Positions 5,910-52,954 of a stretch of 64,000 nt of DNA are shown one piece after another. The translations under genes were made by a program, and so were the position numbers. Within the stretch, counting starts at the first letter, position 1, and each line of letters starts with the position of its first letter. The notes below the pieces were generated by a model that was not told where the DNA came from, made no database searches, and saw nothing but the letters and a program-made list of their open reading frames with translations. The stretch is from contig JBEVXU010000001.1 in assembly GCA_040505895.1 (NCBI GenBank), positions 124,834 through 188,833 on the forward strand, given 5' to 3'. Source of the stretch: Sedimenticola sp. (lineage in GTDB: Bacteria; Pseudomonadota; Gammaproteobacteria; Chromatiales; Chromatiaceae).

Positions 5910-6269
5910 GGCAATAAAGCCTCCTTAATCTCACCCTAAAAACTTGATACTTCTGACCAACCCCGAAACGTTGGCCTTATAATTAAATTGTTATTGTGTG
6001 GTCCCTGCTGCAGGACTCTTAATGCTTTTTATTCGCCACAATCCCTAAAGATGATGGCTTGTGGAAAAACCACGGTCCAGAAAGTAACAAGTGAGATCGC
6101 ACACTGCAACTATAAATCACTCGCCTGTTGCTGGATATCGAGCACACACAATACATAATCCATTGATTTTTCAGGCGATTAAAAAATTGAGTGGAAAGGA
6201 GCGAAGTATCAATAAAAACCCCATCTGGGGAACAGGTCGCCGACAAATCTAAATAGCTCAGGTATCATA

Positions 6270-7223
6270 ATGCCCATGACTATCAGACTTGGTGTAGTGA
6301 TGGATCCTATCGGCTCCATCAACACAAAAAAAGACAGCACCTTCGCCATGCTTCTCGAAGCCCAGCGGCGAGGCTGGGAGCTGCACTACATGGAACAGGC
6401 AGACCTGTTTCTAAGCGACGAGACCCCATTCGCCGTTACGCGTGAACTGGAAGTAACAGACAACACCGGCAGCTGGTTCAGCTTGAAACCTGAAAAGGTG
6501 ACCGCACTCGAACAGCTCCATGTCATCCTGATGCGCAAAGACCCCCCTTTCGATATGGAGTATATCTATACCACCTATATTCTGGAGAGGGCGGAAGCCC
6601 AGGGCACACTGATAGTAAACCGGCCGGCAAGCCTGAGGGACTGCAATGAGAAGCTGTTTACCGCTTGGTTTCCCCAGTGCTGCACCCCGACACTGGTGAG
6701 CAGCCAACACCAGCGACTCAACGCCTTCCTCGAACAGCACAATGACATCATTCTAAAACCTCTGGGTGGAATGGGCGGCGCTTCAATTTTCCGTCTCCGT
6801 ACCGATGATGCCAACCGTAATGTCATCATTGAGACACTGACTGACAACGGCACCAAATATGCCATGGCACAAAAATTTGTTCCTGAGATCAGTGCCGGCG
6901 ATAAACGCATCCTTATGGTCGATGGCGAACCTGTTCCTTATGCCTTGGCACGTATTCCAAAAGAGGGGGAGACCCGTGGCAACTTGGCCGTCGGCGGGCG
7001 GGGAGAAGGGGTTGCGTTATCACAACGGGACCTGTGGATCGCCCAAGAAATAGGCCCTGCTCTGAAAGAACGAGGCATACTCTTTGCTGGGCTTGACGTT
7101 ATTGGTGACTACCTGACAGAGATCAATGTCACCAGTCCCACCTGTATCCGGGAGCTTGACAGCCTCTACCATCTCAATATCAGCGCGGACCTGATGGATA
7201 GCATCGAGCTAAAGCTGAAATGA
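6270..7223 (+). CDS. gshB: Glutathione synthetase
   Basis: LGVVMDPIGSINTKKDSTFAMLLEAQRRGWELHYME and an ATP-grasp C-terminal part. Near-colinear with E. coli GshB. Confidence 0.95.
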   Translation: MPMTIRLGVVMDPIGSINTKKDSTFAMLLEAQRRGWELHYMEQADLFLSDETPFAVTRELEVTDNTGSWFSLKPEKVTALEQLHVILMRKDPPFDMEYIYTTYILERAEAQGTLIVNRPASLRDCNEKLFTAWFPQCCTPTLVSSQHQRLNAFLEQHNDIILKPLGGMGGASIFRLRTDDANRNVIIETLTDNGTKYAMAQKFVPEISAGDKRILMVDGEPVPYALARIPKEGETRGNLAVGGRGEGVALSQRDLWIAQEIGPALKERGILFAGLDVIGDYLTEINVTSPTCIRELDSLYHLNISADLMDSIELKLK

Positions 7224-7287
7224 CAGGGTTACCGCCTCTAATACAGCCTCCAGGTGATAAGTCGGGATACACCACATCACTGAAGCA

Positions 7288-8217
7288 TTGCCTGAAAAAA
7301 ATAGTTTCCGTCTCAGGGCAGAGCGGATGAACGGCAGTACAACCGTCACCCCTGTTGATAGATTTGGCCTGACCCTATTTGTCGCCGTAGCGTTGCATGC
7401 AGTGGTTATCCTCGGTATCAGCTTCAGCCTGGATGAGCCGAAGCGTCCAGCCAACCCAGACCGCACCCTGGAGATCATGGTGCTACAACAGCCAAAGAAG
7501 ACAGAGGCTCCTAAAAAGGCTGATTACTTAGCACAGATCACTCATGCAGGCGGCGGAAACCAGGAGAAGAAGGCACGGCCAACAACGGTTGCTCCCTCAC
7601 CCAAACCCGCTCCAAAACAGCCCCCTGCACCGCAGAACCGCCCGGTAAAGCAACCTGCTCCAATTCCGCCAAAAAAGGTGAAAAAGGTACTTAGCCAAAA
7701 AAGCCCGGCAAAAAAGAGAGTGATCACCAAGCCAAAAACACCACCAAAAAAGCCTCTCAAGAAGAGAGTGACCGCCGCCCAATTACTGGCCAGCGCAAAT
7801 CCGGAAATCGCACGACTCACGGCTGAGATTGCACGCAAGGAGAGAGCGTATGCAAAGCGTCCTAGAAAAAAATTCATCAGCGCCCGCACTAAAGAGCACA
7901 AGTACGCCAGCTACCTGGACAGTTGGCGACGCAAGGTTGAAAGTGTCGGCAATCTCAACTACCCGGATGAAGCGAGACGAAAAAAACTTTATGGCAACCT
8001 TGTTCTAGAGGTCTCGATCCGCCAGGGAGGCGATGTCAGTGAGATTGCGGTCAGAAGATCTTCCGGGCATAAACTACTGGATGACGCAGCAATACGTATC
8101 GTCAAGCAGTCCGCCCCGTTCGCTCCCTTCCCTGCCGAGATCAGGGAGGAGACAGAGATCATCGTCATCACCCGCACCTGGCAGTTTCTTAAAAGTAACC
8201 GGCTCTTTGCAAAATAG
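7288..8217 (+). CDS. TonB-family energy transducer (TonB3-like position next to gshB)
   Basis: N-terminal TM segment, a Pro/Lys-rich spacer (PKPAPKQPPAPQNRPVKQPAPIPPKK) and a TonB C-terminal domain (YPDEARRKKLYGNLVLEVSI...GHKLLDDAAIRIVKQSAPFAPFP). The start may be the internal MNGSTT at 7327. Confidence 0.8.
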   Translation: MPEKNSFRLRAERMNGSTTVTPVDRFGLTLFVAVALHAVVILGISFSLDEPKRPANPDRTLEIMVLQQPKKTEAPKKADYLAQITHAGGGNQEKKARPTTVAPSPKPAPKQPPAPQNRPVKQPAPIPPKKVKKVLSQKSPAKKRVITKPKTPPKKPLKKRVTAAQLLASANPEIARLTAEIARKERAYAKRPRKKFISARTKEHKYASYLDSWRRKVESVGNLNYPDEARRKKLYGNLVLEVSIRQGGDVSEIAVRRSSGHKLLDDAAIRIVKQSAPFAPFPAEIREETEIIVITRTWQFLKSNRLFAK

Positions 8218-42358: not shown

Positions 42359-44119
42359 ATGGCCGGAAAAATCCCTCACCACTTCATTGATGAACTGCTG
42401 AACCGGGTCGATATCGTCGATCTCATCAACGGCCGCGTCCCTTTGAAAAAGGCAGGTAAGGATTACCAGGCCTGCTGCCCTTTTCATGACGAAAAAACCC
42501 CCTCCTTCAGTGTCAGTCGAGAGAAACAGTTCTACTACTGCTTTGGCTGCGGCGCCCACGGCAACGCCGTCGGTTTTCTCATGGAGTACGACAACCTCGG
42601 ATTCGTCGATGCCGTTGAAGAGCTGGCGGCACGGGAAGGTGTGGATGTTCCCAGAGAGGCCGGCGGCCAGAGCAGCGGCCCCGACTTTCGCCCCCTTTAC
42701 GAAACACTGGAGCAATCAGCCCTCTTTTATCAACAGCAACTGCGCCATCACGCCCAGGCGAGTGCAGCGGTGGACTACCTCAAGCAGCGCGGGCTGAGCG
42801 GGAAGATTGCCGCCGAATTCGGCATTGGCTTTGCTCCACCCGGCTGGAGCAACCTGCTGGACAACCTTGGCAGTGAAAACCTAAAGCGACTGGAGACTAC
42901 CGGCATGCTCTCACAGTCTGAAAACGGCAAGCAGTATGATCGTTTTCGTGAGCGTATCATGTTCCCCATCCGTAACCACCGCGGACAGACCATCGCCTTT
43001 GGCGGCCGTATTCTCGGCGACGGAAAACCCAAGTACCTCAATTCACCTGAAACCCCGGTATTTCACAAAGGCAGGGAGCTCTATGGCCTCTACGAAGCAC
43101 GCAAGGCACTGCGCAAAATAGAGCGACTGATGGTAGTAGAAGGGTATATGGATGTGGTCGCCCTGGCTCAGTTCGGCATACGCTTCACTGTCGCCACACT
43201 CGGCACTGCCACCACCCCGGATCATCTGGACCGCCTCTACCGGACCACCTCAGAGGTGATCTTCTGCTTTGATGGGGATCGTGCCGGTCGTGATGCCGGT
43301 TGGAAGGCACTGGAGACTTCACTGCCTCACATGCGCGATGGACGCGAGGCACGCTTTCTCTTCCTACCCGACGGCGAAGACCCCGACAGCCTGATTCGCC
43401 GTGAGGGGGTGGAACGTTTTCAGCAAAGGATATCTGAGGCCAGCCCCCTTTCAGACTTTCTCTTCAACAAACTGATGGAGCAGGTCGACATGAACTCACT
43501 GGCCGGCAAGGCACGCCTAGTGGAACTAGCCAAGCCACTACTGGCAAAACTGCCTGGCGGGCTGCTCGGCGGGATGATGCGCAACCGCCTCGGAGAGCTG
43601 GTGGGTGTAGATGCCGACAGGCTTACAGACAGATCCTCAACCGGTCAGCTGCCGCAGCGCCCGGCGAAGCGCCGACAGAAAGGCGCTCAACAGACGGTGT
43701 CACCGGCACGTCTGACTATCGCTCTGCTGCTGAGACGCCCGGAACTGGCCACTCTCGAGCAACTTCCGTTGGCCTGCCTGCAATCAGAGGCACCAGGGAT
43801 GGATTTATTGTGTCAGCTCCTTGATTTACTGAGAAACCAGCCTAATCTTAAGCCATACCAAATTATCGAGCGTTGGCGCGGAGCGCCGGAATTCCCACAC
43901 CTGGAAAAACTGTGGCGCTTAGCCGAGGAGCTTCCACTCCCCGACGAAGGACTGGAAGACGAATTCAGAGGCGCCCTGCAACGTTTAAACGAGCAGCAGC
44001 GCGAACAGGAGACCACGAGGTTGCTTGCAAAAGTAAGTGCAGGAGAGGCCTCGGAGAGTGAGCGGCAGCTGCTGACACAACTTCTTTCCACAAAAAGTGT
44101 GAAGCAGTCTGAAAACTAG
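42359..44119 (+). CDS. dnaG: DNA primase
   Basis: Zinc ribbon CCPFHDEKTPSFSVSREKQFYYCFGCGAHGN and TOPRIM EGYMDVVAL...DGDRAG. Confidence 0.95.
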   Translation: MAGKIPHHFIDELLNRVDIVDLINGRVPLKKAGKDYQACCPFHDEKTPSFSVSREKQFYYCFGCGAHGNAVGFLMEYDNLGFVDAVEELAAREGVDVPREAGGQSSGPDFRPLYETLEQSALFYQQQLRHHAQASAAVDYLKQRGLSGKIAAEFGIGFAPPGWSNLLDNLGSENLKRLETTGMLSQSENGKQYDRFRERIMFPIRNHRGQTIAFGGRILGDGKPKYLNSPETPVFHKGRELYGLYEARKALRKIERLMVVEGYMDVVALAQFGIRFTVATLGTATTPDHLDRLYRTTSEVIFCFDGDRAGRDAGWKALETSLPHMRDGREARFLFLPDGEDPDSLIRREGVERFQQRISEASPLSDFLFNKLMEQVDMNSLAGKARLVELAKPLLAKLPGGLLGGMMRNRLGELVGVDADRLTDRSSTGQLPQRPAKRRQKGAQQTVSPARLTIALLLRRPELATLEQLPLACLQSEAPGMDLLCQLLDLLRNQPNLKPYQIIERWRGAPEFPHLEKLWRLAEELPLPDEGLEDEFRGALQRLNEQQREQETTRLLAKVSAGEASESERQLLTQLLSTKSVKQSEN

Positions 44120-44207: not shown

Positions 44208-46019
44208 ATGGATCAGGAACAGCAGCAATCCCAACTCAAACAACTGATCGCAAAAGGTAAGGAGCAAGGCTACCTTACCTATGCGGAAGTCAATGACCAT
44301 CTCCCCGACAGCATTGTTGAACCGGAACAGATCGAAGACATCATTCGCATGATCAACGATATGGGTATCCAGGTGCACGAGGCTGCGCCGGATGCCGATG
44401 ACCAGGTAATGACCGATACCGCCGTCACCACTGACGATGATGCCGCCGAAGCCGCTGCTGCAGCGCTCGCCACCGTCGACAGTGAGTTTGGCCGCACCAC
44501 CGACCCAGTCCGTATGTATATGCGCGAGATGGGCACCGTGGAACTGCTCACCCGCGCCGGCGAACTTAAAATCGCCAAGCGTATCGAAGAGGGACAGGCC
44601 CAGGTATTAACCGCCCTTGCCACCTTCCCCGATACCATCGTACATATCCTCGAGAAGTTTGCTCTGCTTAAGAGCGAAGATATCCGGATTTCTGATGTTA
44701 TCGCCGGCTTCGCCCATCCCGAGGTCGACATTCCCGTCCCTCCTCCCCCACCATCCGCAAATAAAGACGATGACGAAGAGGAAGAGATAGATACCGGTCC
44801 CGATCCTATTGAGGTCGCAGAAAAAGCAGCCGACATCGGCAAACATTACAAAGCAACGATCAAGGCCCTTGAGAAGTACGGCCGCGAAGACAGCAAGACC
44901 CATAAGGCCCAGGAGAAACTGACCGAAGCATTTATGGAGTTCCGTTACATTCCCGCTTTGGTCATTGCCATCAATGGCAACCTGCGCGCCTCGATTGCTT
45001 TCATCCGCGCCCAAGAGCGGAACATCATGGACTTCTGCATCACCCAGGCCCGCATGCCGCGCAAGGAGTTCATCACCTCCTTCCCCGACAGCGAAACCGA
45101 CCTTGGTTGGATCGATAGACAGGTCAAGGCAGGCAAAGGCTACTCAGATGCACTGAGCGAGGTCTCCGCCGACGTAGTCCGCTGCCAGAAGCGACTGATT
45201 GAACTGGAGTCCAAAACCCAGCTTCACATCAGTGACATCAAAGAGATCAACCGCAAGATGTCCATCGGCGAAGCCAAGGCACGCCGGGCAAAGAAAGAGA
45301 TGGTCGAAGCCAACCTTCGACTGGTAATCTCCATCGCCAAAAAATACACCAATCGTGGCCTGCAGTTCCTCGACCTGATCCAGGAAGGCAACATCGGCCT
45401 GATGAAAGCGGTAGACAAATTCGAGTACCGTCGTGGTTACAAATTCTCCACCTACGCTACATGGTGGATTCGCCAGGCGATCACCCGCTCCATCGCCGAT
45501 CAGGCACGTACCATCCGTATTCCGGTACACATGATAGAGACCATCAACAAGCTCAACCGCATCTCCCGCCAGATGGTTCAGGAGATGGGCCGCGAGGCGA
45601 CACCGGAAGAGCTGGCCGAGCGCATGGACATGCCGGAAGACAAGGTACGCAAGGTACTGAAGATCGCCAAAGAGCCGATCTCCATGGAGACCCCCATCGG
45701 CGACGACGAAGACTCCCATCTGGGCGACTTCATCGAAGATGCAGGCGTTGTATCCCCCATCGAATCGGCCACCGCCGAAGGGTTGGGCGAAGCGACACAG
45801 CAGATGCTCTCGGGCCTCACCTCCCGTGAAGCAAAAGTACTGCGTATGCGCTTCGGTATCGACATGAACACCGACCACACCCTGGAAGAGGTCGGTAAAC
45901 AGTTCGACGTCACCCGTGAGCGTATCCGCCAGATCGAAGCCAAGGCCCTAAGAAAGTTGCGTCACCCCTCTCGTTCGGAGAAAATGCGTAGCTTCCTGGA
46001 CGGTGACTCCTCACAGTAG
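44208..46019 (+). CDS. rpoD: RNA polymerase sigma-70
   Basis: The acidic region, region 2.4 ([29 protein letters not shown]) and region 4.2 are all present. Confidence 0.97.
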
Positions 46020-46034
46020 CCACCAGCAGTTTCC

Positions 46035-46111
46035 GGGCCTATAGCTCAGTTGGTTAGAGCAGTGGACTCATAATCCATTGGTCCTAGGTTCGAGTCCTAG
46101 TAGGCCCACCA
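46035..46111 (+). tRNA. tRNA with anticodon CAU (elongator Met, or more likely Ile2/lysidine type)
   Basis: Folded by hand. Acceptor GGGCCTA/TAGGCCC, anticodon stem GTGGA/TCCAT with loop CTCATAA, T-arm CTAGG-TTCGAGT-CCTAG, and 3' ACCA. It resembles E. coli ileX, which also lies downstream of rpoD (from memory). Confidence 0.9.
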
Positions 46112-46233: not shown

Positions 46234-46530
46234 ATATTTTCAATGAGTTACGCACATTCCTCTTTTTCGGAATTTTTTGTATAGACAGGCGAGAAAAGGG
46301 AAGTTCACGCAATAATAGACCCCCAATGATTTGTACGTAATAATCCCTTGGAGCCCTAGGAATAAAAACTAAGTACAAAGTGGCAACAAATCGCCAGGGA
46401 AGTAATATCGTGTTAACCCAATTTGCATTAATCAGCTCTCCAGCTATAATCACCACCAACAAAACCCGCCAAGGCTATGCTGCTTGCAGTATCCTCAAAC
46501 CGGCGGGTTACTTCTTTCTGGGGAGAAAAA

Positions 46531-47424
46531 ATGCATTTTAATAAACCTCCCAGAAGCTTCCAGGAGCAGGTAAAAATTCTCGAATCTCGCGGTATGGTAA
46601 TTCCTGACCATGCCAACGCTGCTTACTACCTCAGCCACCTCAATTACTACCGCCTTAGGGGCTATTGGCTACCATTAGAGGCAGATCAGAAAAACCACCA
46701 GTTCAAACCAGGCACAACTTTTGAGGAAGCGCTGAACCTCTACATCTTTGACCGGGAACTACGTTTGCTAGTGATGGATGCCATCGAGCGAATAGAGGTT
46801 TCTCTGCGGACCCAATGGGCCTACCACCTAGCCCAGGACCACGGTCCCCATGCCTACATGGACCCAGCCCTATGTAAAAACCCACACTGGCATGAACGCA
46901 ACCTACAATCCCTCAATAAAGAGCTCCAGCGCACAGATGAGGTTTTCATCAGCCACTACAACAGCACCTATACCACACCGGCTACCCCGCCAGTCTGGGT
47001 TGTATGTGAAGTCATGTCCCTAGGACTGCTCTCCCGCTGGTGTAAAAGTCTACGCCCAGCAGATACCAGAGCCGCCATAGCCAAGACATATAATCTTCCA
47101 GATCGGGTACTGGTTAGCTTTATTGAGCACATGGCCTACATAAGAAACATCTGCGCCCACCACAATCGTCTTTGGAATAGGCGGATGACCAAAACCATGG
47201 AGCTTCCACGCACAAAACCCCGTGGATTAAGTGAGAACTTTGATCATACTCAGACCAGAAAGCTCTATAACACCCTGGTCATGACCGCCTACTTGATGGA
47301 TCTCATCAGCCCTGGGAATCATTGGAAAACACGTCTATTTGGCTTGATCGCAGAGCACCAGATTGAACCCCAGGCCATGGGCTTCCCTGCAGATTGGAAA
47401 AACCGCCCTATCTGGCAAATATAA
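46531..47424 (+). CDS. Abi_2 (AbiD/AbiF-like) abortive-infection family protein
   Basis: [16 protein letters not shown]...[62 protein letters not shown] and [16 protein letters not shown]. The start has GGGGAG 6 nt upstream. Confidence 0.85.
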
Positions 47425-47440
47425 TAAAAATGAAATAATC

Positions 47441-47579
47441 GGGGACAGACCCGAATGGCACTAAGTTAAGGGGGTTTATTATCTGATCTATCAACGCCTA
47501 GCCCTTATTCTAAGCGGAATTGGCTGCTGTAGATTTTATGTGAAAAGGGCTTAACTTAGTGCCATTCGGGTCTGCCCCC
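47441..47579. mobile_element. MITE-like element, family 4, copy 1
   Basis: About 29-bp near-perfect TIRs GGGGACAGACCCGAATGGCACTAAGTTAAG ... CTTAACTTAGTGCCATTCGGGTCTGCCCC. Confidence 0.8.
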
Positions 47580-47606
47580 TATTACGCTGTTAGCTCCACT
47601 ATATAG

Positions 47607-48299
47607 TTAACTCCTACCAAATATCGGATCAGTCGATGAGATCTCAAATGTACCGGTTTTGAGCTCTTCAACCAAAAGAGACTGCCTGCGCACACTAAGG
47701 GGAAGACTGTTACACCTAGCTGCATTCTCAATTCCGATCATACCAATTACCCACTCTAGATCTTCTTGCATGACGCGCATTCTGCCATAGAACAGAGCTT
47801 TGAAAATGGCCTCAGACAGATTCTCATGTGCTACCCTCCCTAGGCTACTCGCCATCATAAATAGCGTCACAGAGTTTATTGGAGATATATCAAGATACCT
47901 CTCCCTACAAATTCGGTTTGCCTTTCTCTCGTCAATAATGGGTATCGCATTCTCAGTTGCACAATAGGCGAGCGTTGCAGCCTCACCGTCGTCAAGCGTT
48001 GATAAAGATGCCCCGGAAACCATACCCTCAAATTCCTTCCAACCATCCGGATTTAGAGTAACGCACTTGATAACTTTCTGTTCAATGAGAGACTTTAGTA
48101 CATCACCATCTATACAACCGTTGCTTGCACCCCTCTCAAGCTCTGAAATAATCACATCAGCCACATAGAAAGGCCGAGCAATCAATTGAAGCAATTCTCT
48201 ATAAAAACCGCTTGCTACTATGTTGATAATGACGCTAGCGTCTGCCACCAGCGGAATATCTTGGTCAACCCTAGAGTGATGGTGCATCGTCTGCGTCAC
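47607..48299 (-). CDS. PIN-like nuclease domain protein with a C-terminal extension of about 80 aa (gene 4 of the island operon)
   Basis: The acidic residues follow PIN order: LVADASVIINI, ISELERG, LDDGEAATLAYC and IPIIDERKANRI. 29-nt overlap with the upstream gene. Confidence 0.65.
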   Translation of the reverse strand: MTQTMHHHSRVDQDIPLVADASVIINIVASGFYRELLQLIARPFYVADVIISELERGASNGCIDGDVLKSLIEQKVIKCVTLNPDGWKEFEGMVSGASLSTLDDGEAATLAYCATENAIPIIDERKANRICRERYLDISPINSVTLFMMASSLGRVAHENLSEAIFKALFYGRMRVMQEDLEWVIGMIGIENAARCNSLPLSVRRQSLLVEELKTGTFEISSTDPIFGRS

Positions 48300-49449
48300 T
48301 CCAATCTAGATCATAAGAATCTATAATTTCACGTAAATCACCGCGACTTATGTCTAAAAGGTGAGCTAGCTGACCCTCGCTTAACAAGCCTTGACTCCAT
48401 GCTTGGCAAACTAAAGAGTTGAGCCTATACGTTGTTGGCTTCTCTGAAACAGCTTGGTCCCTGTTAGGGACCGCCATTTCACCCAAGACTTCTAAAGCTT
48501 GTTTGTCAGTGATACCACCATTCATTCCGAACCAATCCCAAGTCCCCTTCGCTACAGCCCCAAGATGCTCACATCTACGAACCATAGCTTCTCTAGACAC
48601 ACCAAAAGTATGTGACAGGATTATTATGTGCCTTCGAGTGAACTGAGTAGATCCAGCAGTAACCTCTTTGAACTTACCCAATATAGCCCTAGAAGGCATC
48701 AAAAAAGCATTCGCAAATGCTATCGCATACCTCTCCTCGCGTGACTTTACAGGATCGCTTTCACAAAGCACCTCAGGCATTCTTCGAGTAGCAATAAAGT
48801 GCCCCAGTTCATGAGCAGCAGTATTCTTTCTTCGATCTTTTGGGTGATTCCCATTTAGTAAGATACAAGCCCCTAGTGATTCTTCATAAGCAAACAAGCC
48901 AGAAATACCACTATCCATTTTTTTAATATAAACACGAACTCCCAAATCAAGCTCTAAGATACTTATAATATCAAGCACGGGACTGTTTGAAAGACCTAAC
49001 CATTGCCTTAGCTCGTTAGCATCTTGCTCTGCTTGTTGAACTACATCACCGGAAAGCAGAGGTCTCTCAGGTGGGTAATTTCTAGTACGCTGTACACCCA
49101 ACAGATTTTCAAGCTCGACTTCAGCTTTAACAAAATGAGATAAAATTGAGGCCGCTTCCTCACTCAACTTTTCGTTTGAATTAAAGTGACGTCTGAATCT
49201 CGGTACAAGATCAACGTGCAATGCTTCTTTTCGGAGTAAAGAATTAACAGTAGTGCCATAGAGACGCGCAAACTCTCTAAGCTCTTCAATCTTCACCCTC
49301 CTTTGTCCTTTTTCAATGGCAACGAGAGTGGTTCGAGCTACCCCAACATCTTTCGCCGCATGGGCTTGAGTTATAGACGCATCCTCCCTTGCCATCCTCA
49401 GCCGATTACCCAGCTCACTAGCACCTATTTCATCGTGCAATCTCTGCAT
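48271..49449 (-). CDS. XRE-family HTH fused to an ImmA/IrrE (COG2856) zinc metallopeptidase (gene 3)
   Basis: HTH LRMAREDASITQAHAAKDVGVARTTLVAIEKGQRRVKIEEL. HEXXH motif in NTAAHELGHFIATRR, followed by ERYAIAFANAFLMP. Confidence 0.8.
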   Translation of the reverse strand: MQRLHDEIGASELGNRLRMAREDASITQAHAAKDVGVARTTLVAIEKGQRRVKIEELREFARLYGTTVNSLLRKEALHVDLVPRFRRHFNSNEKLSEEAASILSHFVKAEVELENLLGVQRTRNYPPERPLLSGDVVQQAEQDANELRQWLGLSNSPVLDIISILELDLGVRVYIKKMDSGISGLFAYEESLGACILLNGNHPKDRRKNTAAHELGHFIATRRMPEVLCESDPVKSREERYAIAFANAFLMPSRAILGKFKEVTAGSTQFTRRHIIILSHTFGVSREAMVRRCEHLGAVAKGTWDWFGMNGGITDKQALEVLGEMAVPNRDQAVSEKPTTYRLNSLVCQAWSQGLLSEGQLAHLLDISRGDLREIIDSYDLDWSDADDAPSL

Positions 49450-49456
49450 CGTATTT

Positions 49457-50818
49457 TCACACCCACTTCATTAAGAAGGATCTAGGATCGAGGGAACTGA
49501 GAAACTGCTCCCATTCATACTCGTGTTTTTGCAGTAATAATATTTGCTTCCTCATCGCTTCGTCGTGATCCATACCGAGTAACCGCGCTAACTGAAGAGC
49601 ATGCAATTCTAAACTCGATTTTTCAGATGGACGCCTGTGGATTTTAGCCATATCTTTAAGATGAGCCATTCCTGCAACAGCATATTTTCTATGCGCTTTA
49701 TAATCGTGCATAGCATCTCTATTCTTTGCCGCGCCCTCCTCAAATTTCTCAGCATTCAGATCATGCCAGAGATAAGTATCAACTTGTTCAGTTAGTCCCG
49801 CAGCATGAACACTCATTCTCCTCAGAAAACAGGCGGCACATATCCCACATTGCCGACGCTTGCCTTCCACAGAGGTTTGACGGGCCCCACGCCAACAGGA
49901 GCGAGTCTTCTGCCAATCAGTTTTGTCGTGTGTAAGGGCCACATATTTCTCTAAAGTTTCACCTTTTGTATTCCATAATCTCGGGAAGCTGAAGTGGATA
50001 CTCTTTTCAAAAAGCGCACTAAATAATCGTTCCATTTGACTAAAAAACACTGGGTGATTTCTATAATCTATGGATGCATGGCTAACAGGCACTAATGCTG
50101 GCCCTAGGGCTCCTTGTCCACTTTCAGTAACTATCACTCTTTCAGCCCCAGACAAATACGATGCGGCTCCACTTAAAACAGCAAACTTAAATCCCCTAGA
50201 CCTCCCACTAGATTCTTTAGAGTCTCCGCGCTGATAAACCTTATACGGTACAGCGACAAAAGGTTTATTTTTACTATCTTCCCTCGAACCCAAACGCACC
50301 CGTACGAGTTTGTCACCATATTGATGTGAAGATATTCCTGATACTGACAAAGAGTCCAACCCGTCACTATAAGCCAGAATCGCTTCTGTATACCCTTCCA
50401 GCTCCAACACCACTTGAGCTGGCCATTCAAACTCAAAGCTTCTTTCCCGAAAGTCTATATTCCACTTATCACCTGTCAGCTTATTGAGAGCTGAGATCAG
50501 TGGCTCGCAAACCTCCTTTGACCCCCAGTGCCTGGGTGAATCCACTGGCACAGATATTGTGAACTCCCTTCCCCACCCCTTTGAGGGACGAGCATGGCAA
50601 TAATCACAATATTCGACAGCCGCTGCGATAGTGAAAGCATCGTATATCAAGGGCTCCCTATTCTTAAAAAAATAGCTCGCAAGTGCATCCGGCTGGAATA
50701 TTAAATTCTGGTCTATAACACAAGGAGACCAACCCTCAGGAGTGGCATCTCCAAAATTATGAACATGTACTTTCTTGTGAGGCAGTTTGAGAGGCTTAAT
50801 GCGTCTAGTTGACTTCAT
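49457..50818 (-). CDS. QueC-like PP-loop ATPase with an N-terminal extension of about 140 aa (gene 2)
   Basis: PP-loop variant AILAYSDGLDSLS. SRGFKFAVLSGAASYLSGAERVIV. Zn-Cys cluster TRSCW...QCGICAACFLRR, colinear with the QueC SCY...CGxCxxCxLR. There are no queuosine-pathway neighbours. Confidence 0.7.
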   Translation of the reverse strand: MKSTRRIKPLKLPHKKVHVHNFGDATPEGWSPCVIDQNLIFQPDALASYFFKNREPLIYDAFTIAAAVEYCDYCHARPSKGWGREFTISVPVDSPRHWGSKEVCEPLISALNKLTGDKWNIDFRERSFEFEWPAQVVLELEGYTEAILAYSDGLDSLSVSGISSHQYGDKLVRVRLGSREDSKNKPFVAVPYKVYQRGDSKESSGRSRGFKFAVLSGAASYLSGAERVIVTESGQGALGPALVPVSHASIDYRNHPVFFSQMERLFSALFEKSIHFSFPRLWNTKGETLEKYVALTHDKTDWQKTRSCWRGARQTSVEGKRRQCGICAACFLRRMSVHAAGLTEQVDTYLWHDLNAEKFEEGAAKNRDAMHDYKAHRKYAVAGMAHLKDMAKIHRRPSEKSSLELHALQLARLLGMDHDEAMRKQILLLQKHEYEWEQFLSSLDPRSFLMKWV

Positions 50819-51378
50819 AATCCCGGACCTACATCTAAGTCTGTCTGTTTAGTTCGCTTCGTTTTCCAACCTGATCTTTTTGGGTCTATCAGTTCTCTAG
50901 CAATCTGGAGAAATGGTATTGTGTTGATTAACTTCTGCAATTTTTCAGACATATGCTGTGACCTTTCGACTTTAGACTCTCTTATATAATGCTCCTCGAT
51001 ACTTCTGGCGTTTCGATTCGTACGTTCCTCAAGAGCCCTAGCGCACCCCAACTCTATGGTTCTCTCATTCAAAGAGCCGCCCTCAACGCTAGCCATGTCT
51101 ATATAGTCAACGCACCTATCAGCTAAATCATTTCCGGCTACGTGCCCCCGGATTGAGTCAATATCGATATCAGGGAATAACTGACCCTGCTCACCAATTA
51201 GCGCATCCCGCAAATGGCCAACTACTTCATAGCCATGCTCTTGCTGAAAATCAGCCGCAAGCGCATCTGAAAGGGCGGCCGAACACTCAGCCAAAGATGA
51301 CGCCTCATTGTCACAGGCCTCCGCCATTTTCTTCCATCGTCGTCGCAAATTTAAGCTGAAATGTGGGCCATCACTCAT
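50815..51378 (-). CDS. Hypothetical 187-aa protein with no recognisable domain (gene 1)
   Basis: The start MSDGPHFSL was chosen because GGAGG lies 7 nt upstream. 4-nt ATGA overlap with the QueC-like gene. Confidence 0.55.
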   Translation of the reverse strand: MSDGPHFSLNLRRRWKKMAEACDNEASSLAECSAALSDALAADFQQEHGYEVVGHLRDALIGEQGQLFPDIDIDSIRGHVAGNDLADRCVDYIDMASVEGGSLNERTIELGCARALEERTNRNARSIEEHYIRESKVERSQHMSEKLQKLINTIPFLQIARELIDPKRSGWKTKRTKQTDLDVGPGL

Positions 51379-51417
51379 AAGCAAACCTCCAATGTTATAT
51401 AGCCAGCCCCTAAATCC

Positions 51418-51459
51418 TGACATTGTCACTATAATTACATCACATACCTGACATTGTCA
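51418..51459. promoter_or_regulatory. Two identical palindromes (C)CTGACATTGTCA, 31 bp apart centre to centre. Candidate operators/promoter of the island operon.
   Basis: TGACA-T-TGTCA occurs at 51418-51428 and at 51449-51459, 40-80 bp upstream of the gene 1 start. The distal copy reads TTGACA on the coding (minus) strand. Confidence 0.5.
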
Positions 51460-51855
51460 AATGGTCGCTTAATGCCTTCGATTCAGAGGAGAGTAGTAAA
51501 AAATCTAAAAGACCTGCTATTGAGGTGAATATTCAAGCAAGCCCTCAGAGGATGAGGGGGAAATCTTATATCGGCCGATAAGTCGCACAAACATGAGGGT
51601 TACAACAAGCAAAAGTTTTGAATCGATGGGGTCAGACTCGATTGATTTAACCGGTACCATCACCCTTTTGTTTCTATTTTTTAAGGCATGGTACAAGTGA
51701 ACAACTGGGGGGGGCAGCCCACATTGGGATCAAATATGATATTTGGGGTCAGAGTAAAAACTATTGGAGCATTAGCAGCATTCTCTACCCTAACCCAAAA
51801 TATCATTCTTTAAGAAACAGTACGATATATATCCAATCTAGCCAGTAGCAGGATA

Positions 51856-52359
51856 TCAATCAGTACCCATCATCTTTTTGTACTTTTGACAGGCTACTTT
51901 TCTTGCTGCTTCATCCTTTGCACTTCCTGTTTCTCCTGCTTGAAGTGTAAGCAATGAACACTTCTGTCTTGCATCTCCAATTATCATTGACTCGCTGGAA
52001 GGACGAGTGATGGTCGCGTAGGTAGGTGTGAATGAAGCCGCAGCATTGCAGTACATGTTTTTGAGTTTTTTATACTTCCAGTGAGTCTTCTTATGTCCAT
52101 TAAGATATGAGCATGTCTCACTGAAAAGATCTTTGGCTGCTATTGTGCAATCAGAGAAGTGTTGGATATTGTTTTTCTTCGCAGCACATACTGAAGGTTT
52201 TCTGATCTGCCATATCTGATACTGATAATCGATAGTGGTACCTCTGTATTCAACCACCTCTGCTTCAATTTCAGTACCAATAATCTCACTAATTCCCGAG
52301 TCGATAGGATTCACGAGAGCCTGCACAAATGCAGAAAATATCACTGCTGATACATCCAT
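51856..52359 (-). CDS. Hypothetical Cys-containing protein
   Basis: 167-aa ORF in the AT-rich island with six Cys. I recognise no domain. Confidence 0.4.
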   Translation of the reverse strand: MDVSAVIFSAFVQALVNPIDSGISEIIGTEIEAEVVEYRGTTIDYQYQIWQIRKPSVCAAKKNNIQHFSDCTIAAKDLFSETCSYLNGHKKTHWKYKKLKNMYCNAAASFTPTYATITRPSSESMIIGDARQKCSLLTLQAGETGSAKDEAARKVACQKYKKMMGTD

Positions 52360-52580: not shown

Positions 52581-52718
52581 GGATCAGACTCGAATGGTAC
52601 TGGATTAAAGGGCTTTATCATGTGCCAGGCCAAAGACTTAGCCCTTATCATAAGCGGAATATGGAGGAGCTCATTCAATATTAAAAGAGCTTAACTTAGT
52701 GCCATTCTGGTCTGCTCC
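52581..52718. mobile_element. MITE-like element, family 4, copy 2 (same orientation as copy 1)
   Basis: GGATCAGACTCGAATGGTACTGGATTAAAG ... CTTAACTTAGTGCCATTCTGGTCTGCTCC. It shares the internal GCCCTTAT(T/C)(C/A)TAAGCGGAAT. Confidence 0.75.
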
Positions 52719-52954
52719 CTATTATTCCATTATCGATTCAGAAAACTTTTTTCAATCAAAATCTCATGACTAGACTGTGATCAATCCTCCATGCGTTCGG
52801 TCATGATATAAACAGGCTGATTGTGGGTTATCTAGAGAATAGCCCCCTACTGTTGCTGTTTCCTGGTTCAGGAGCTTAAGCAAGAGACACCCATGATTAG
52901 AAAGGGGAGTATCTCTGCCCTTCATCTCGCCAATTATTAACTACGGAGTAACAC

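Follow-up and report, generated by a model that had tools for sequence, protein, structure and literature searches.

Which kind of system is encoded by four tightly packed genes that lie in a low-GC island of Sedimenticola sp. and combine a QueC-like enzyme with a repressor-protease fusion and a PIN-like nuclease? An earlier note, made from sequence alone, had proposed that this operon might be an undescribed defense-type system. To address this, we examined the window, a 64,000-nucleotide stretch of contig JBEVXU010000001.1 (GCA_040505895.1, positions 124,834 to 188,833), in which the genes, here referred to as g1 to g4 in order of transcription, occupy positions 47607 to 51378 of the minus strand.

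Gene content and boundaries of the operon

We first assessed whether the open reading frames and their junctions were as described, and the observation held in full. The maximal g1 reading frame, from a GTG, spans 50815-51429, but the real start is the ATG at 51378, which gives the 187-aa product stated in the earlier note. The g2 gene (49457-50818) encodes 453 aa, g3 (48271-49449) encodes 392 aa, and g4 (47607-48299) encodes 230 aa from a GTG, although the family alignment favors the ATG at 48287 and a product of 226 aa. As claimed, g1 and g2 share an ATGA (4 nt), g2 and g3 are separated by 7 nt, and g3 and g4 overlap by 29 nt (17 nt if g4 starts at 48287). The operon follows dnaG, rpoD, a tRNA-Met gene (46035-46111), and an Abi_2/AbiD gene (46477-47424), in a region where GC content falls from about 0.56 to about 0.44 between 46 and 53 kb.

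A consensus scan identified a single predicted promoter upstream of g1 (51418-51460, minus strand), with a -35 box TTGACA at 51460-51455 and a -10 box AATTAT at 51436-51431 (10/12 match). The end assigned to the locus in the earlier note, 51459, falls in this -35 box. The palindrome TGACAaTGTCA occurs at 51459-51449 and again at 51428-51418, and a Shine-Dalgarno sequence, GGAGG (51386-51390, minus strand), lies 7 nt upstream of the g1 ATG, with a GGAG at the equivalent position in most related loci. In 70 of 80 loci from many phyla, TTGACAnTGTCA, an AT-rich spacer of about 20 nt, and a second TGACA lie just before the g1 start, the palindrome overlapping the -35 box. Binding of the g3 helix-turn-helix domain to this conserved putative operator is inferred. 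The same scan placed a weak terminator-like hairpin at 47439-47454 (minus strand), about 150 nt downstream of g4, which may mark the end of the operon; however, the number of such sites is not above shuffle expectation.

Predicted identities of the four proteins

We next aimed to identify each product, beginning with the QueC-like g2 protein. The motifs AYSDGLDS and SCW...QCGICAACFLRR reported in the earlier note are present and conserved across the family. Although NCBI annotates g2 as a 7-cyano-7-deazaguanine synthase, it is not a housekeeping QueC: it scored 17.6 bits on TIGR00364 against a cutoff of 150, lacks the canonical QueC catalytic motifs, and matched QatC at 1e-28 to 4e-34 (1.1e-28 with the PADLOC QatC profile). 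The NCBIfam QatC model gave 118 bits, below its cutoff of 280, and the only significant PDB matches were QatC (9vlk and 9zee). All QatC cluster-2 motifs listed in PMC13329287 are present, and in an alignment with six canonical QatC proteins g2 was collinear over the N-terminal extension, the PP-loop core, the R-x-R-x-x-x-F adenine site, the H-P loop, the P-x4-T-K motif, the Zn-Cys cluster C..CGxCxxCxxRR, and a C-terminal helical extension. At 25 to 29% identity, g2 represents a distinct sister clade of QatC. Its PP-loop is S-[D/N/E]-G-x-D-S in the family (SDGLDS here, compared with SGGLDS in QatC), and its substrate loop is D-Y-R-N-H-P where QatC has T-R-T-T-H-P (within S-T-R-T-T-H-P). Because the second glycine of the PP-loop is replaced by D, N, or E, catalytic competence is assumed.

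The g1 protein belongs to a new, predicted all-helical family (AF2 pLDDT 81) that comprised 770 clusters at 50% identity, all of them standalone proteins of about 185 to 190 aa. It had no hit in Pfam, PADLOC, NCBIfam, PHROGs, or PDB, and no fold match was found in PDB or BFVD. The earlier note had suggested that g1 might correspond to QatB, but no similarity to QatB was detectable (hhalign probability, 0.6%), and g1 is at most an analogue. It is about 80 aa shorter than QatB and lacks both the 30- to 90-aa disordered tail and the N-terminal glycine of that protein. An EEHY.R motif and a GLDDGV.L-type C terminus are conserved, and the N terminus M-S-D-G-P (S2, D3, G4, and P5) is invariant in 77 of 77 loci despite free synonymous codon change, indicating strong selection at the protein level. 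This parallels the N termini of QatB (MGTS) and CD-NTase (MGGS), which are essential for defense (PMC13279940). However, some family members begin M-I-D-G-P or, as annotated, R-D-G-I; there, removal of the methionine would not expose residue 2, and a simple model in which the N-terminal amine of residue 2 is the target may be wrong.

The HTH and HEXXH motif (HELGH) claimed for g3 were confirmed, and a third domain was found. The protein is a triple fusion of an XRE HTH (about residues 12 to 75; HTH_31, 1e-12), an M78/COG2856 ImmA/IrrE peptidase (about residues 135 to 300; Pfam Peptidase_M78, 9e-16), and a UPF0175-like C-terminal domain (about residues 345 to 387). UPF0175 was hit weakly by 52 of 59 family members, always below Pfam's gathering score. 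PADLOC profiles matched RmrA (3e-27), capP (2e-16), and capH (1e-6), with RmrA profiles not covering the last 90 or so residues. With a mean pairwise identity of 63%, g3 is the most conserved gene of the cassette. Structure prediction likewise confirmed the PIN fold proposed for g4 (AF2 pLDDT 92.3): all of the best-scoring Foldseek hits (ranks 1 to 42) were PIN/VapC-type domains with a probability of 1.0 and a TM of about 0.7. The g4 protein is of the COG2405/DUF3368 type, with about 150 aa of PIN-like nuclease plus a conserved helical C-terminal extension. D16, E49, D100, and D119/E120 are invariant, homologues carry PF11848, and 9 of 60 members hit Pfam PIN weakly.

Linkage, codivergence, and genomic context

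To evaluate whether the four genes form a unit, we fetched 80 of the loci behind 398 species hits, which were distributed patchily, by horizontal transfer, across Alpha-, Beta-, and Gammaproteobacteria, Acidobacteriota, Verrucomicrobiota, Chloroflexota, Gemmatimonadota, Binatia, and others. The order g1-g2-g3-g4 and the strand were kept in 74 of 74 complete loci, the other 6 being cut by contig ends, an arrangement far beyond chance. The cassette also occurs on 25 plasmids, and the order was kept in the 5 plasmid loci inspected, at 34 to 46% g2 identity. Overlapping or abutting junctions are conserved, including those between g2 and g3, and g1 and g2 overlap by 4 nt in 62 of 79 loci. Pairwise divergences of all four genes correlate (r = 0.80 to 0.88), with cross-module correlation as high as within-module correlation; the Mantel value for g2 versus g3 was 0.877, against a permutation maximum of 0.148. 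Besides the adjacent AbiD gene in the window, immediate neighbors elsewhere include Fic/SoFic (n = 13), GajA, AbiEi, MADS, AbiLi, AriA, R-M methylases, HipA, and Shedu. No copy was found in phage or IMG/VR collections, which is neutral with respect to defense.

We then asked whether the operon corresponds to a named system. PADLOC-DB 2.0 and NCBIfam assigned none, and no paper in the literature library searched describes it. Thus, none of the computational outcomes that the earlier note had set as refuting its reading (a housekeeping QueC, a lack of co-occurrence, or an already named system) was observed. Among the closest known systems is QatABCD (Gao et al. 2020) with its QatB-QatC core (Nat Commun 2026: PMC13279940, PMC13376578, PMC13639016), which likewise has a small helical, translationally coupled partner gene immediately upstream of the enzyme and occurs in defense islands and on plasmids. 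However, no QatA (KAP NTPase) or QatD (TatD) gene is present, and the effector side is instead the XRE-M78-UPF0175 fusion plus the PIN nuclease. In the Cap9/CD-NTase deazaguanylation of type IV CBASS (Wassarman et al. 2025, bioRxiv 10.1101/2025.04.06.647259), the QueC-superfamily enzyme Cap9 is proposed to act on the conserved N terminus of the CD-NTase encoded next to it, and g2 has a tyrosine at the position of the base-stacking tyrosine of Cap9 (Y-R-N here, Y-x-D there). Neither a CD-NTase nor a Cap10/TGT gene is present, g2 has QatC-type extensions that the minimal Cap9 lacks, and g1 has Ser/Thr followed by D-G-P rather than Gly-Gly-Ser.

The g3-g4 pair resembles RosmerTA (RmrT/RmrA), a validated defense system in which RmrA-type HTH-M78 antitoxins act, and the predicted three-component toxin-antitoxin type of XRE-COG2856 fusions with downstream COG2405/DUF4411 PIN proteins (Makarova 2009, PMC2701414; Matelska 2017, PMC5499597; Ernits 2023, PMC10440598). 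The overlapping downstream COG2405/DUF3368 PIN gene is exactly the pairing described by Matelska et al., and UPF0175 is reported to occur exclusively with COG2405 PIN proteins. Here, however, the pair is always preceded by, and codiverges with, a QatC-like enzyme and its partner under one promoter, and g3 is a triple fusion. In the CapH/CapP, ImmR/ImmA, and DdrO/IrrE switches, an M78 metallopeptidase is likewise expected to cleave an XRE repressor on a stress signal, and a palindromic operator overlaps the promoter of the controlled operon. In g3, the two are fused into one polypeptide, encoded inside the operon, joined to an extra antitoxin-like domain, and more conserved than the genes they would regulate.

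A proposed Qat-like module coupled to a protease-gated PIN toxin

The earlier note's preferred interpretation, a Qat-like core rewired to a PIN effector under a protease-gated XRE switch, is supported as the best fit to these data, and we give it a probability of roughly 0.5. Its alternative, two fused two-gene modules, is true historically, because XRE-COG2856 and PIN pairs are a known predicted toxin-antitoxin type, but in this family the two halves are never seen apart and they codiverge. It remains possible, although we consider it unlikely, that two independent systems are merely cotranscribed: a minimal QatBC-like defense pair and a RosmerTA-like pair that works alone or only stabilizes the island or plasmid as an addiction module. 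QatB and QatC alone protect against some phages (PMC13279940), XRE-COG2856 and PIN pairs are common as stand-alone predicted modules, and RosmerTA defends as a two-gene system, so that linkage does not prove functional coupling. Against this stand the unbroken linkage in 74 complete chromosomal loci and in the 5 plasmid loci inspected, the conserved g2-g3 junctions, the cross-module codivergence, and the single conserved promoter/operator upstream of g1.

Equally unlikely is a reading in which g3 is only a CapH/CapP-like stress-responsive transcription switch, activated for example by DNA damage, and modified g1 directly activates or targets the PIN nuclease, with no toxin-antitoxin relationship between g3 and g4. 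The capP and capH matches, the conserved operator, and the ImmA/ImmR and IrrE/DdrO precedents for M78 peptidases cleaving XRE repressors favor this view. However, the strong conservation of g3 includes a C-terminal domain resembling antitoxins of exactly this PIN type, and g3 lies inside the operon and overlaps g4, unlike the divergently encoded CapH/CapP regulators. A nonimmune role, such as 7-deazapurine-related metabolism or a stress-response module of mobile elements, is very unlikely, despite the NCBI annotation of g2 and the absence of a known phenotype, given that g2 fails the QueC models, that no queD, queE, queF, or tgt gene is nearby, that neighborhoods are dominated by defense and toxin-antitoxin genes, and that the distribution is patchy.

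What the analysis establishes is the identities and folds of the genes, their strict linkage and codivergence, the conserved operator, and the defense-island context. In contrast, the role of g1 as the g2 substrate, operator binding and neutralization of g4 by g3, the direction of signaling between the halves, the protein modification step, and the defense phenotype are inferred. In our view, the four genes form one transcription unit that behaves as a single mobile cassette and is most likely an anti-phage system of the abortive-infection type. By analogy with QatB-QatC and CD-NTase-Cap9, the g2 ATP-pyrophosphatase would bind g1, which sits in the QatB position and is translationally coupled to g2, and act on its N-terminal peptide (M)-S/T-D-G-P. 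The likely reaction, which has not been reconstituted even for canonical QatC (PMC13279940, PMC13639016), is ATP-dependent ligation of a carboxylate-bearing small molecule, and the altered substrate loop (Y-R-N instead of T-R-T in QatC or Y-x-D in Cap9) suggests a substrate different from both. The g3 HTH would repress the operon at the TGACAnTGTCA operators, its UPF0175-like domain would hold the g4 nuclease inactive, and its peptidase domain would be the switch. On infection, the state of the g1-g2 module (modified versus unmodified g1, or a g1-g2 complex disturbed by a phage factor) is proposed to trigger the peptidase, which would destroy the repressor/antitoxin, derepress the operon, and free the PIN nuclease to degrade RNA.

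Gene organization of the island

The island lies downstream of dnaG (42359-44119), rpoD (44208-46019) and tRNA-Met (46035-46111), all on the plus strand, where GC content falls from about 0.56 to about 0.44 between approximately 46 and 53 kb. This stretch contains an Abi_2/AbiD gene (46477-47424; Pfam, 7.6e-60; PADLOC AbiD, 1.9e-78) and four codirectional minus-strand open reading frames (ORFs), here referred to as g1 to g4. The longest ORF for g1 spans 50815-51429, but an alignment of 79 homologues shows that the true start is the ATG at 51378, giving a protein of 187 aa. g2 spans 49457-50818, g3 spans 48271-49449, and g4 spans 47607-48299, although the family alignment favors an ATG at 48287 as the g4 start. 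The junctions are those described in the earlier note: an ATGA overlap, a 7-nt gap and a 29-nt overlap. Upstream of g1, a consensus scan identified a good sigma-70 promoter (TTGACA-18-AATTAT, 51460-51431). An 11-nt palindrome, TGACAaTGTCA, overlaps the -35 box and is repeated 31 nt downstream, and a GGAGG lies 7 nt before the ATG. No Rfam element, such as a preQ1 riboswitch, was found upstream of g1.

We next looked for features that might mark the island as a mobile element. No tRNA-derived att repeat or integrase was seen within it. However, an 86-nt direct repeat (47499-47584 and 52639-52724; 79% identical) brackets the four-gene operon together with an ORF at 51856-52359, and a 19-nt core of this repeat also occurs inverted just after the AbiD gene, as a partial copy at 47453-47471. 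The repeats do not fold into a stable attC-like hairpin (z of about 0.6), so their identification as integron attC sites is not supported, but they could mark the boundaries of inserted cassettes. The bracketed ORF (minus strand, 167 aa) lies between the operon promoter and the distal repeat, has no Pfam, PADLOC or NCBIfam hit and only a match to phrog_7381 (unknown function) at 1e-6, and is not conserved next to the cassette in other genomes. At the 5' end of the AbiD/Abi_2 gene (46465-46508), there is a weak match to the abiF RNA motif (RF03085) of 29.2 bits, below the gathering score of 37, in the position where this motif is expected.

Sequence and predicted structure of the four proteins

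To identify g2, we compared it with models of the QueC superfamily. It matched the QatC models (PADLOC, 1.1e-28 over residues 59-366; NCBIfam NF041925, 118 bits, below the 280-bit equivalog cutoff), and the only significant matches among PDB sequences were QatC (9vlk, 3e-14; 9zee, 2.9e-13). In contrast, it only grazed the QueC models (Pfam, 4.8e-6 on residues 254-338; TIGR00364, 17.6 bits against a cutoff of 150.3; PADLOC QueC, 0.0094). The motifs of canonical QueC (SGGxDS, YxQxHxxE, VPxRN and YPDC) defined in PMC13329287 are absent from the family alignment, and no que genes lie nearby, which rules out housekeeping preQ0 synthase. NCBI, JGI and UniRef nevertheless name g2 and its relatives "7-cyano-7-deazaguanine synthase" or "Queuosine biosynthesis protein QueC"; the motif and model tests indicate that this is almost certainly a misannotation, propagated over hundreds of genomes. 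When aligned with six canonical QatC proteins taken from plasmid Qat operons, g2 is collinear from the N-terminal extension to the C-terminal helices and keeps the QatC-cluster motifs described by Libby et al. 2026 (D..R..W.R, LTGD.W..F, R.R...F, E.G, HP, P....TK and C...CG.C..C..RR). Three differences are family-wide: the PP-loop is S-[D/N/E]-G-[L/M]-D-S instead of SGGxDS; PENG becomes ESGQG; and the loop holding the invariant, essential T278/T280 of QatC (S-T-R-T-T-H-P) reads D-Y-R-N-H-P, which is neither the QatC pattern (T-x-T) nor the Cap9/QueC base-recognition pattern (Y-x-D). We therefore regard g2 as belonging to a sister clade of QatC rather than as an equivalog.

g1 had no hit in Pfam, PADLOC, NCBIfam (E of ≤0.1 for the latter two), PHROGs or PDB sequences. 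An exhaustive HMMER search found 770 clusters at 50% identity (518 at an E value of ≤1e-10), nearly all of them stand-alone proteins of 185 to 190 aa. The AF2 model (pLDDT, 81; pTM, 0.77) is all-helical, with about 10 helices and a disordered C-terminal tail, and Foldseek searches of PDB (to 2026-04-08) and BFVD returned nothing better than an E value of 0.1. Given its position, we asked whether g1 might be QatB, a protein of about 250 to 290 aa with an N-terminal MGTS, a long disordered tail and a 10-helix globule. A g1 profile found no QatB chain among PDB sequences at an E value of ≤10, and profile-profile comparison (hhalign) of the g1 family with six QatB sequences from plasmid Qat loci gave a probability of 0.6%. 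This identity is therefore rejected at the sequence level, although the predicted fold is all-helical like QatB and the QatB structures may postdate the fold library searched. The striking feature of g1 is its extreme N terminus. S2-D3-G4-P5 is invariant in 77/77 loci while the Gly and Pro codons use all four synonymous forms, indicating selection on the protein and not the DNA. Among the 149 best cluster representatives, 134 start MSDGP, 7 MTDGP, 1 MIDGP and 1 MGDGP. An EEHY.R motif and a GLDDGV.L-type C terminus are also conserved, although the latter may partly reflect the Shine-Dalgarno sequence of g2.

g3 contains an XRE helix-turn-helix (HTH_31, 1e-12) and an M78 (COG2856) ImmA/IrrE peptidase domain (9e-16) with a conserved HE.GH. 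It matches PADLOC RmrA models (best, 3.3e-27) and, more weakly, capP (2e-16) and capH (1.3e-6). The last 110 or so residues are not covered by the RmrA profiles; in 52 of 59 family members they hit Pfam UPF0175 (best, 1.3e-6), but all of these hits are below the gathering score. According to Matelska et al. 2017, UPF0175 occurs exclusively next to COG2405 PIN genes. g3 is the most conserved of the four genes, with a mean pairwise identity of 63%, compared to 51% for g2, 46% for g4 and 37% for g1.

g4 had no sequence hit of its own in Pfam or PDB, and its assignment as a PIN protein required the structure model. Its homologues carry PF11848/DUF3368 (= COG2405) in precomputed annotation, and 9/60 members hit Pfam PIN weakly. 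The AF2 model (pLDDT, 92.3; pTM, 0.86) has an N-terminal domain of about 150 aa followed by a conserved helical extension. All of the best-scoring Foldseek hits of that domain in PDB (ranks 1 to 42) are PIN/VapC-type domains (1y82, 5h4g VapC4 and 1v8o PAE2754; probability, 1.0; target TM, about 0.7). D16, E49 and D100 are invariant and D119/E120 are nearly so, consistent with the conserved acidic quartet of PIN nucleases of the VapC-like group.

Linkage, codivergence and genomic neighborhoods

To determine whether the four genes form a unit, we carried out a pattern scan of one genome per species (185,579 species), which found 398 genomes encoding a g2-type protein, and retrieved the best 80 loci. 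phmmer searches with the four proteins found g1-g2-g3-g4 in the same order and on the same strand in 74 loci, while the other six are truncated by contig ends. The hosts span Alpha-, Beta- and Gammaproteobacteria, Acidobacteriota, Verrucomicrobiota, Chloroflexota, Gemmatimonadota, Binatia, Entotheonella and others. On plasmids, 25 records carry a full-length g2-type gene at 34 to 46% identity, and all five inspected have the same four genes. Below about 30% identity, the hits are canonical qatABCD operons; the exceptions among those inspected were one ASCH-containing variant, a lone QatC-like gene beside IS3 transposases, a qatC-qatD locus with no annotated qatA/qatB and one locus without gene annotation. 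The ASCH-containing variant, on Bradyrhizobium japonicum USDA 123 plasmid pUSDA123-1 (locus L095, 417-6170), encodes a 1041-aa protein, a 274-aa partner starting MGSGSFGGGSGS... with a glycine-rich tail, a QatC-like protein and an ASCH-domain protein in place of TatD.

Gene junctions are conserved: g1/g2 overlap by 4 nt in 62/79 loci and by 1 nt in 11, g2/g3 mostly overlap by 1 to 17 nt, and g3/g4 always overlap. Pairwise divergences of the four genes are strongly correlated across 73 loci (r = 0.80 to 0.88), and the cross-module pair g2-g3 (0.877) is at least as high as the within-module pairs, against a label-permutation maximum of 0.148. We therefore see no sign of shuffling between the g1-g2 half and the g3-g4 half within this family. 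The promoter architecture is also conserved, with TTGACAnTGTCA, an AT-rich spacer of about 20 nt, a second TGACA and the Shine-Dalgarno sequence lying directly before the g1 start in 70/80 loci. This matches the very high conservation of the g3 HTH, whose binding at these sites is inferred. In the plasmid copies at 34 to 38% g2 identity (loci L082, 4373-6311; L090, 3328-5278; and L081, 4363-6317), the divergent branch has a partner starting M(M)TDGP and a g2 loop reading DYRNFP, while in the most distant copy the annotated partner starts VRDGIW, the loop reads DLRTHP and the PP-loop is SNGLDS. This hints at covariation between the N terminus of the partner and the substrate loop of the enzyme, based on only three clades.

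The immediate neighbors of the cassette in 67 other genomes are enriched in defense and toxin-antitoxin (TA) genes: Fic/SoFic/PDC-S24 (13 of 134), Gabija GajA, AbiEi, MADS, AbiLi, PARIS AriA, type I/II methylases, HipA, ArdC and integrases. In 13 of the related loci, mainly from Hyphomicrobiales (L006, L012, L016, L023, L024, L029, L034, L036, L043 and others; about 6100-7300, minus strand), a Fic-domain gene (PADLOC SoFic/PDC-S24, DUF4172+Fic) lies divergently, immediately upstream of the cassette promoter; it may be a recurrent island partner or may simply reflect shared ancestry of the island. One plasmid copy sits next to Shedu, and in the present genome the neighbor is AbiD. The idea of a phage-borne system found no support, with no copy in 50,697 phage records or in IMG/VR.

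Relation to known systems and proposed mechanism

We compared the operon with each related system in turn. QatABCD requires the KAP-family P-loop NTPase QatA and the TatD-family nuclease QatD. No ORF between 46 and 56 kb corresponds to QatA, and PADLOC, Pfam and NCBIfam scans of the operon and its neighbors revealed no KAP NTPase; QatA is also absent from the 80 related loci, where the cassette starts at the g1 promoter. No TatD was found, and the position after g2 is occupied by g3 and g4. QatB and QatC form a 1:1 complex that suffices for defense against some phages, for which the QatC active site and the disordered N-terminal tail of QatB with its MGTS motif are essential; an N-terminal modification analogous to Cap9-catalyzed deazaguanylation is suspected but has not been reconstituted (PMC13279940, PMC13376578, PMC13639016). 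Only about a third of the QatC sequence similarity network (SSN) cluster lies next to qatA/qatD, and Supplementary Table S2 of the PF06508 survey lists only KAP_NTPase and TatD as neighbors for that cluster (PMC13329287). Type IV CBASS comprises a CD-NTase, Cap9 and the TGT-like Cap10, but no ORF of the island had a CD-NTase or TGT hit in Pfam or PADLOC, and g2 matches QatC rather than the short Cap9-type QueC. The operon is therefore not a member of QatABCD, type IV CBASS or canonical QueC.

XRE-COG2856 fusion proteins followed by PIN genes (COG2405, DUF4411 and others) were predicted long ago to be three-component TA systems, and RmrA-type HTH-M78 antitoxins function in the validated RosmerTA defense. 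g3 has the XRE and M78 domains of such antitoxins, and the adjacent g4 is confirmed as a PIN of the COG2405/DUF3368 type, but in the loci examined this pair never forms a two-gene unit, as g1 and g2 are always attached. CapH and CapP are separate, divergently encoded repressor and protease genes, and g3 resembles them only at the domain level: here the two domains are fused in one protein encoded by the third gene of the operon. Thus, each half of the operon has a known relative, but we found no description of the obligate combination, the g1 family with its S/T-D-G-P N terminus, the remodeled g2 pocket or the triple-fusion g3. PADLOC 2.0 and NCBIfam do not name the operon, and literature searches on QatB and QatC, deazaguanylation, RosmerTA and QueC-like proteins in the context of PIN, ImmA, XRE or defense found no account of it.

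The observation in the earlier note of a tightly packed four-gene operon is confirmed as a real, widespread and strictly conserved cassette. Its interpretation, that a Qat-like core might be rewired to a PIN effector under a protease-gated XRE switch, is essentially supported. We consider the following mechanism most likely; the identities and linkage of the genes are established by our analysis, but each mechanistic step, including PIN toxicity and its neutralization by g3, as well as the chemistry and defense function, is inferred. g3 would repress the operon through its HTH at the palindromic operators and keep the g4 PIN nuclease inactive through its UPF0175-like domain, while g2 would bind g1 and use ATP to modify its invariant N-terminal peptide. 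Infection would change the state of the g1-g2 module and thereby activate the M78 peptidase of g3, and cleavage would remove both repression and antitoxin function, allowing the PIN nuclease to degrade RNA and abort the infection. The direction of signaling could be the reverse; for example, the peptidase could process g1 at D3|G4 to expose a glycine for g2. Variants starting MIDGP, or annotated RDGI, argue that D-G-P rather than a free residue-2 amine is the key determinant.

Alternatively, the operon may comprise two independent cotranscribed modules, g3 may act purely as a CapH/CapP-like regulator, or the cassette may have a nonimmune role. We consider each of these less likely, and the third least likely. 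The absence of shuffling between the halves speaks against the first, the UPF0175-like domain of g3 and its position inside the operon speak against the second, and the defense-rich neighborhoods and the failure of g2 to match canonical QueC speak against the third. A more speculative reading, which we consider unlikely, is that the g1-g2 pair carries out a protein modification chemically different from Cap9-type N-terminal deazaguanylation. The most invariant feature of g1 is Asp3-Gly4-Pro5 and not a free small N-terminal residue, and the g2 pocket is remodeled (SDGLDS; Y-R-N), so g2 may activate or ligate at the Asp3/Gly4 position, either by ATP-dependent adenylation of the Asp side chain or by acting on a Gly4 N terminus exposed by the g3 peptidase. 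In this view, the modification would be the signal that gates the protease-antitoxin g3 and releases the PIN nuclease, which would be a new kind of posttranslational immune switch.

QueC-family enzymes were only recently recognized as protein-modifying immune components. Cap9 has a defined chemistry, whereas the reaction of QatC and its downstream consequence are still unresolved despite three structural papers in 2026. The cassette described here is a third, widespread QueC-family system, seen in about 400 species genomes, that we interpret as a form of the Qat/type IV CBASS-like defense logic coupled to a known type of protease-gated PIN TA module. It offers a short, invariant and easily mutable putative substrate peptide, a differently built substrate pocket and an unambiguous predicted output (repressor/antitoxin cleavage and PIN toxicity) that can be read out genetically. 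It could therefore make directly testable what QatC-like enzymes attach to their partners and how that modification is converted into an immune response. Together with the ASCH-containing variant, it also suggests that the QatBC-type core is a portable module combined with different effectors, of which TatD+KAP and the PIN+protease form described here are two examples.
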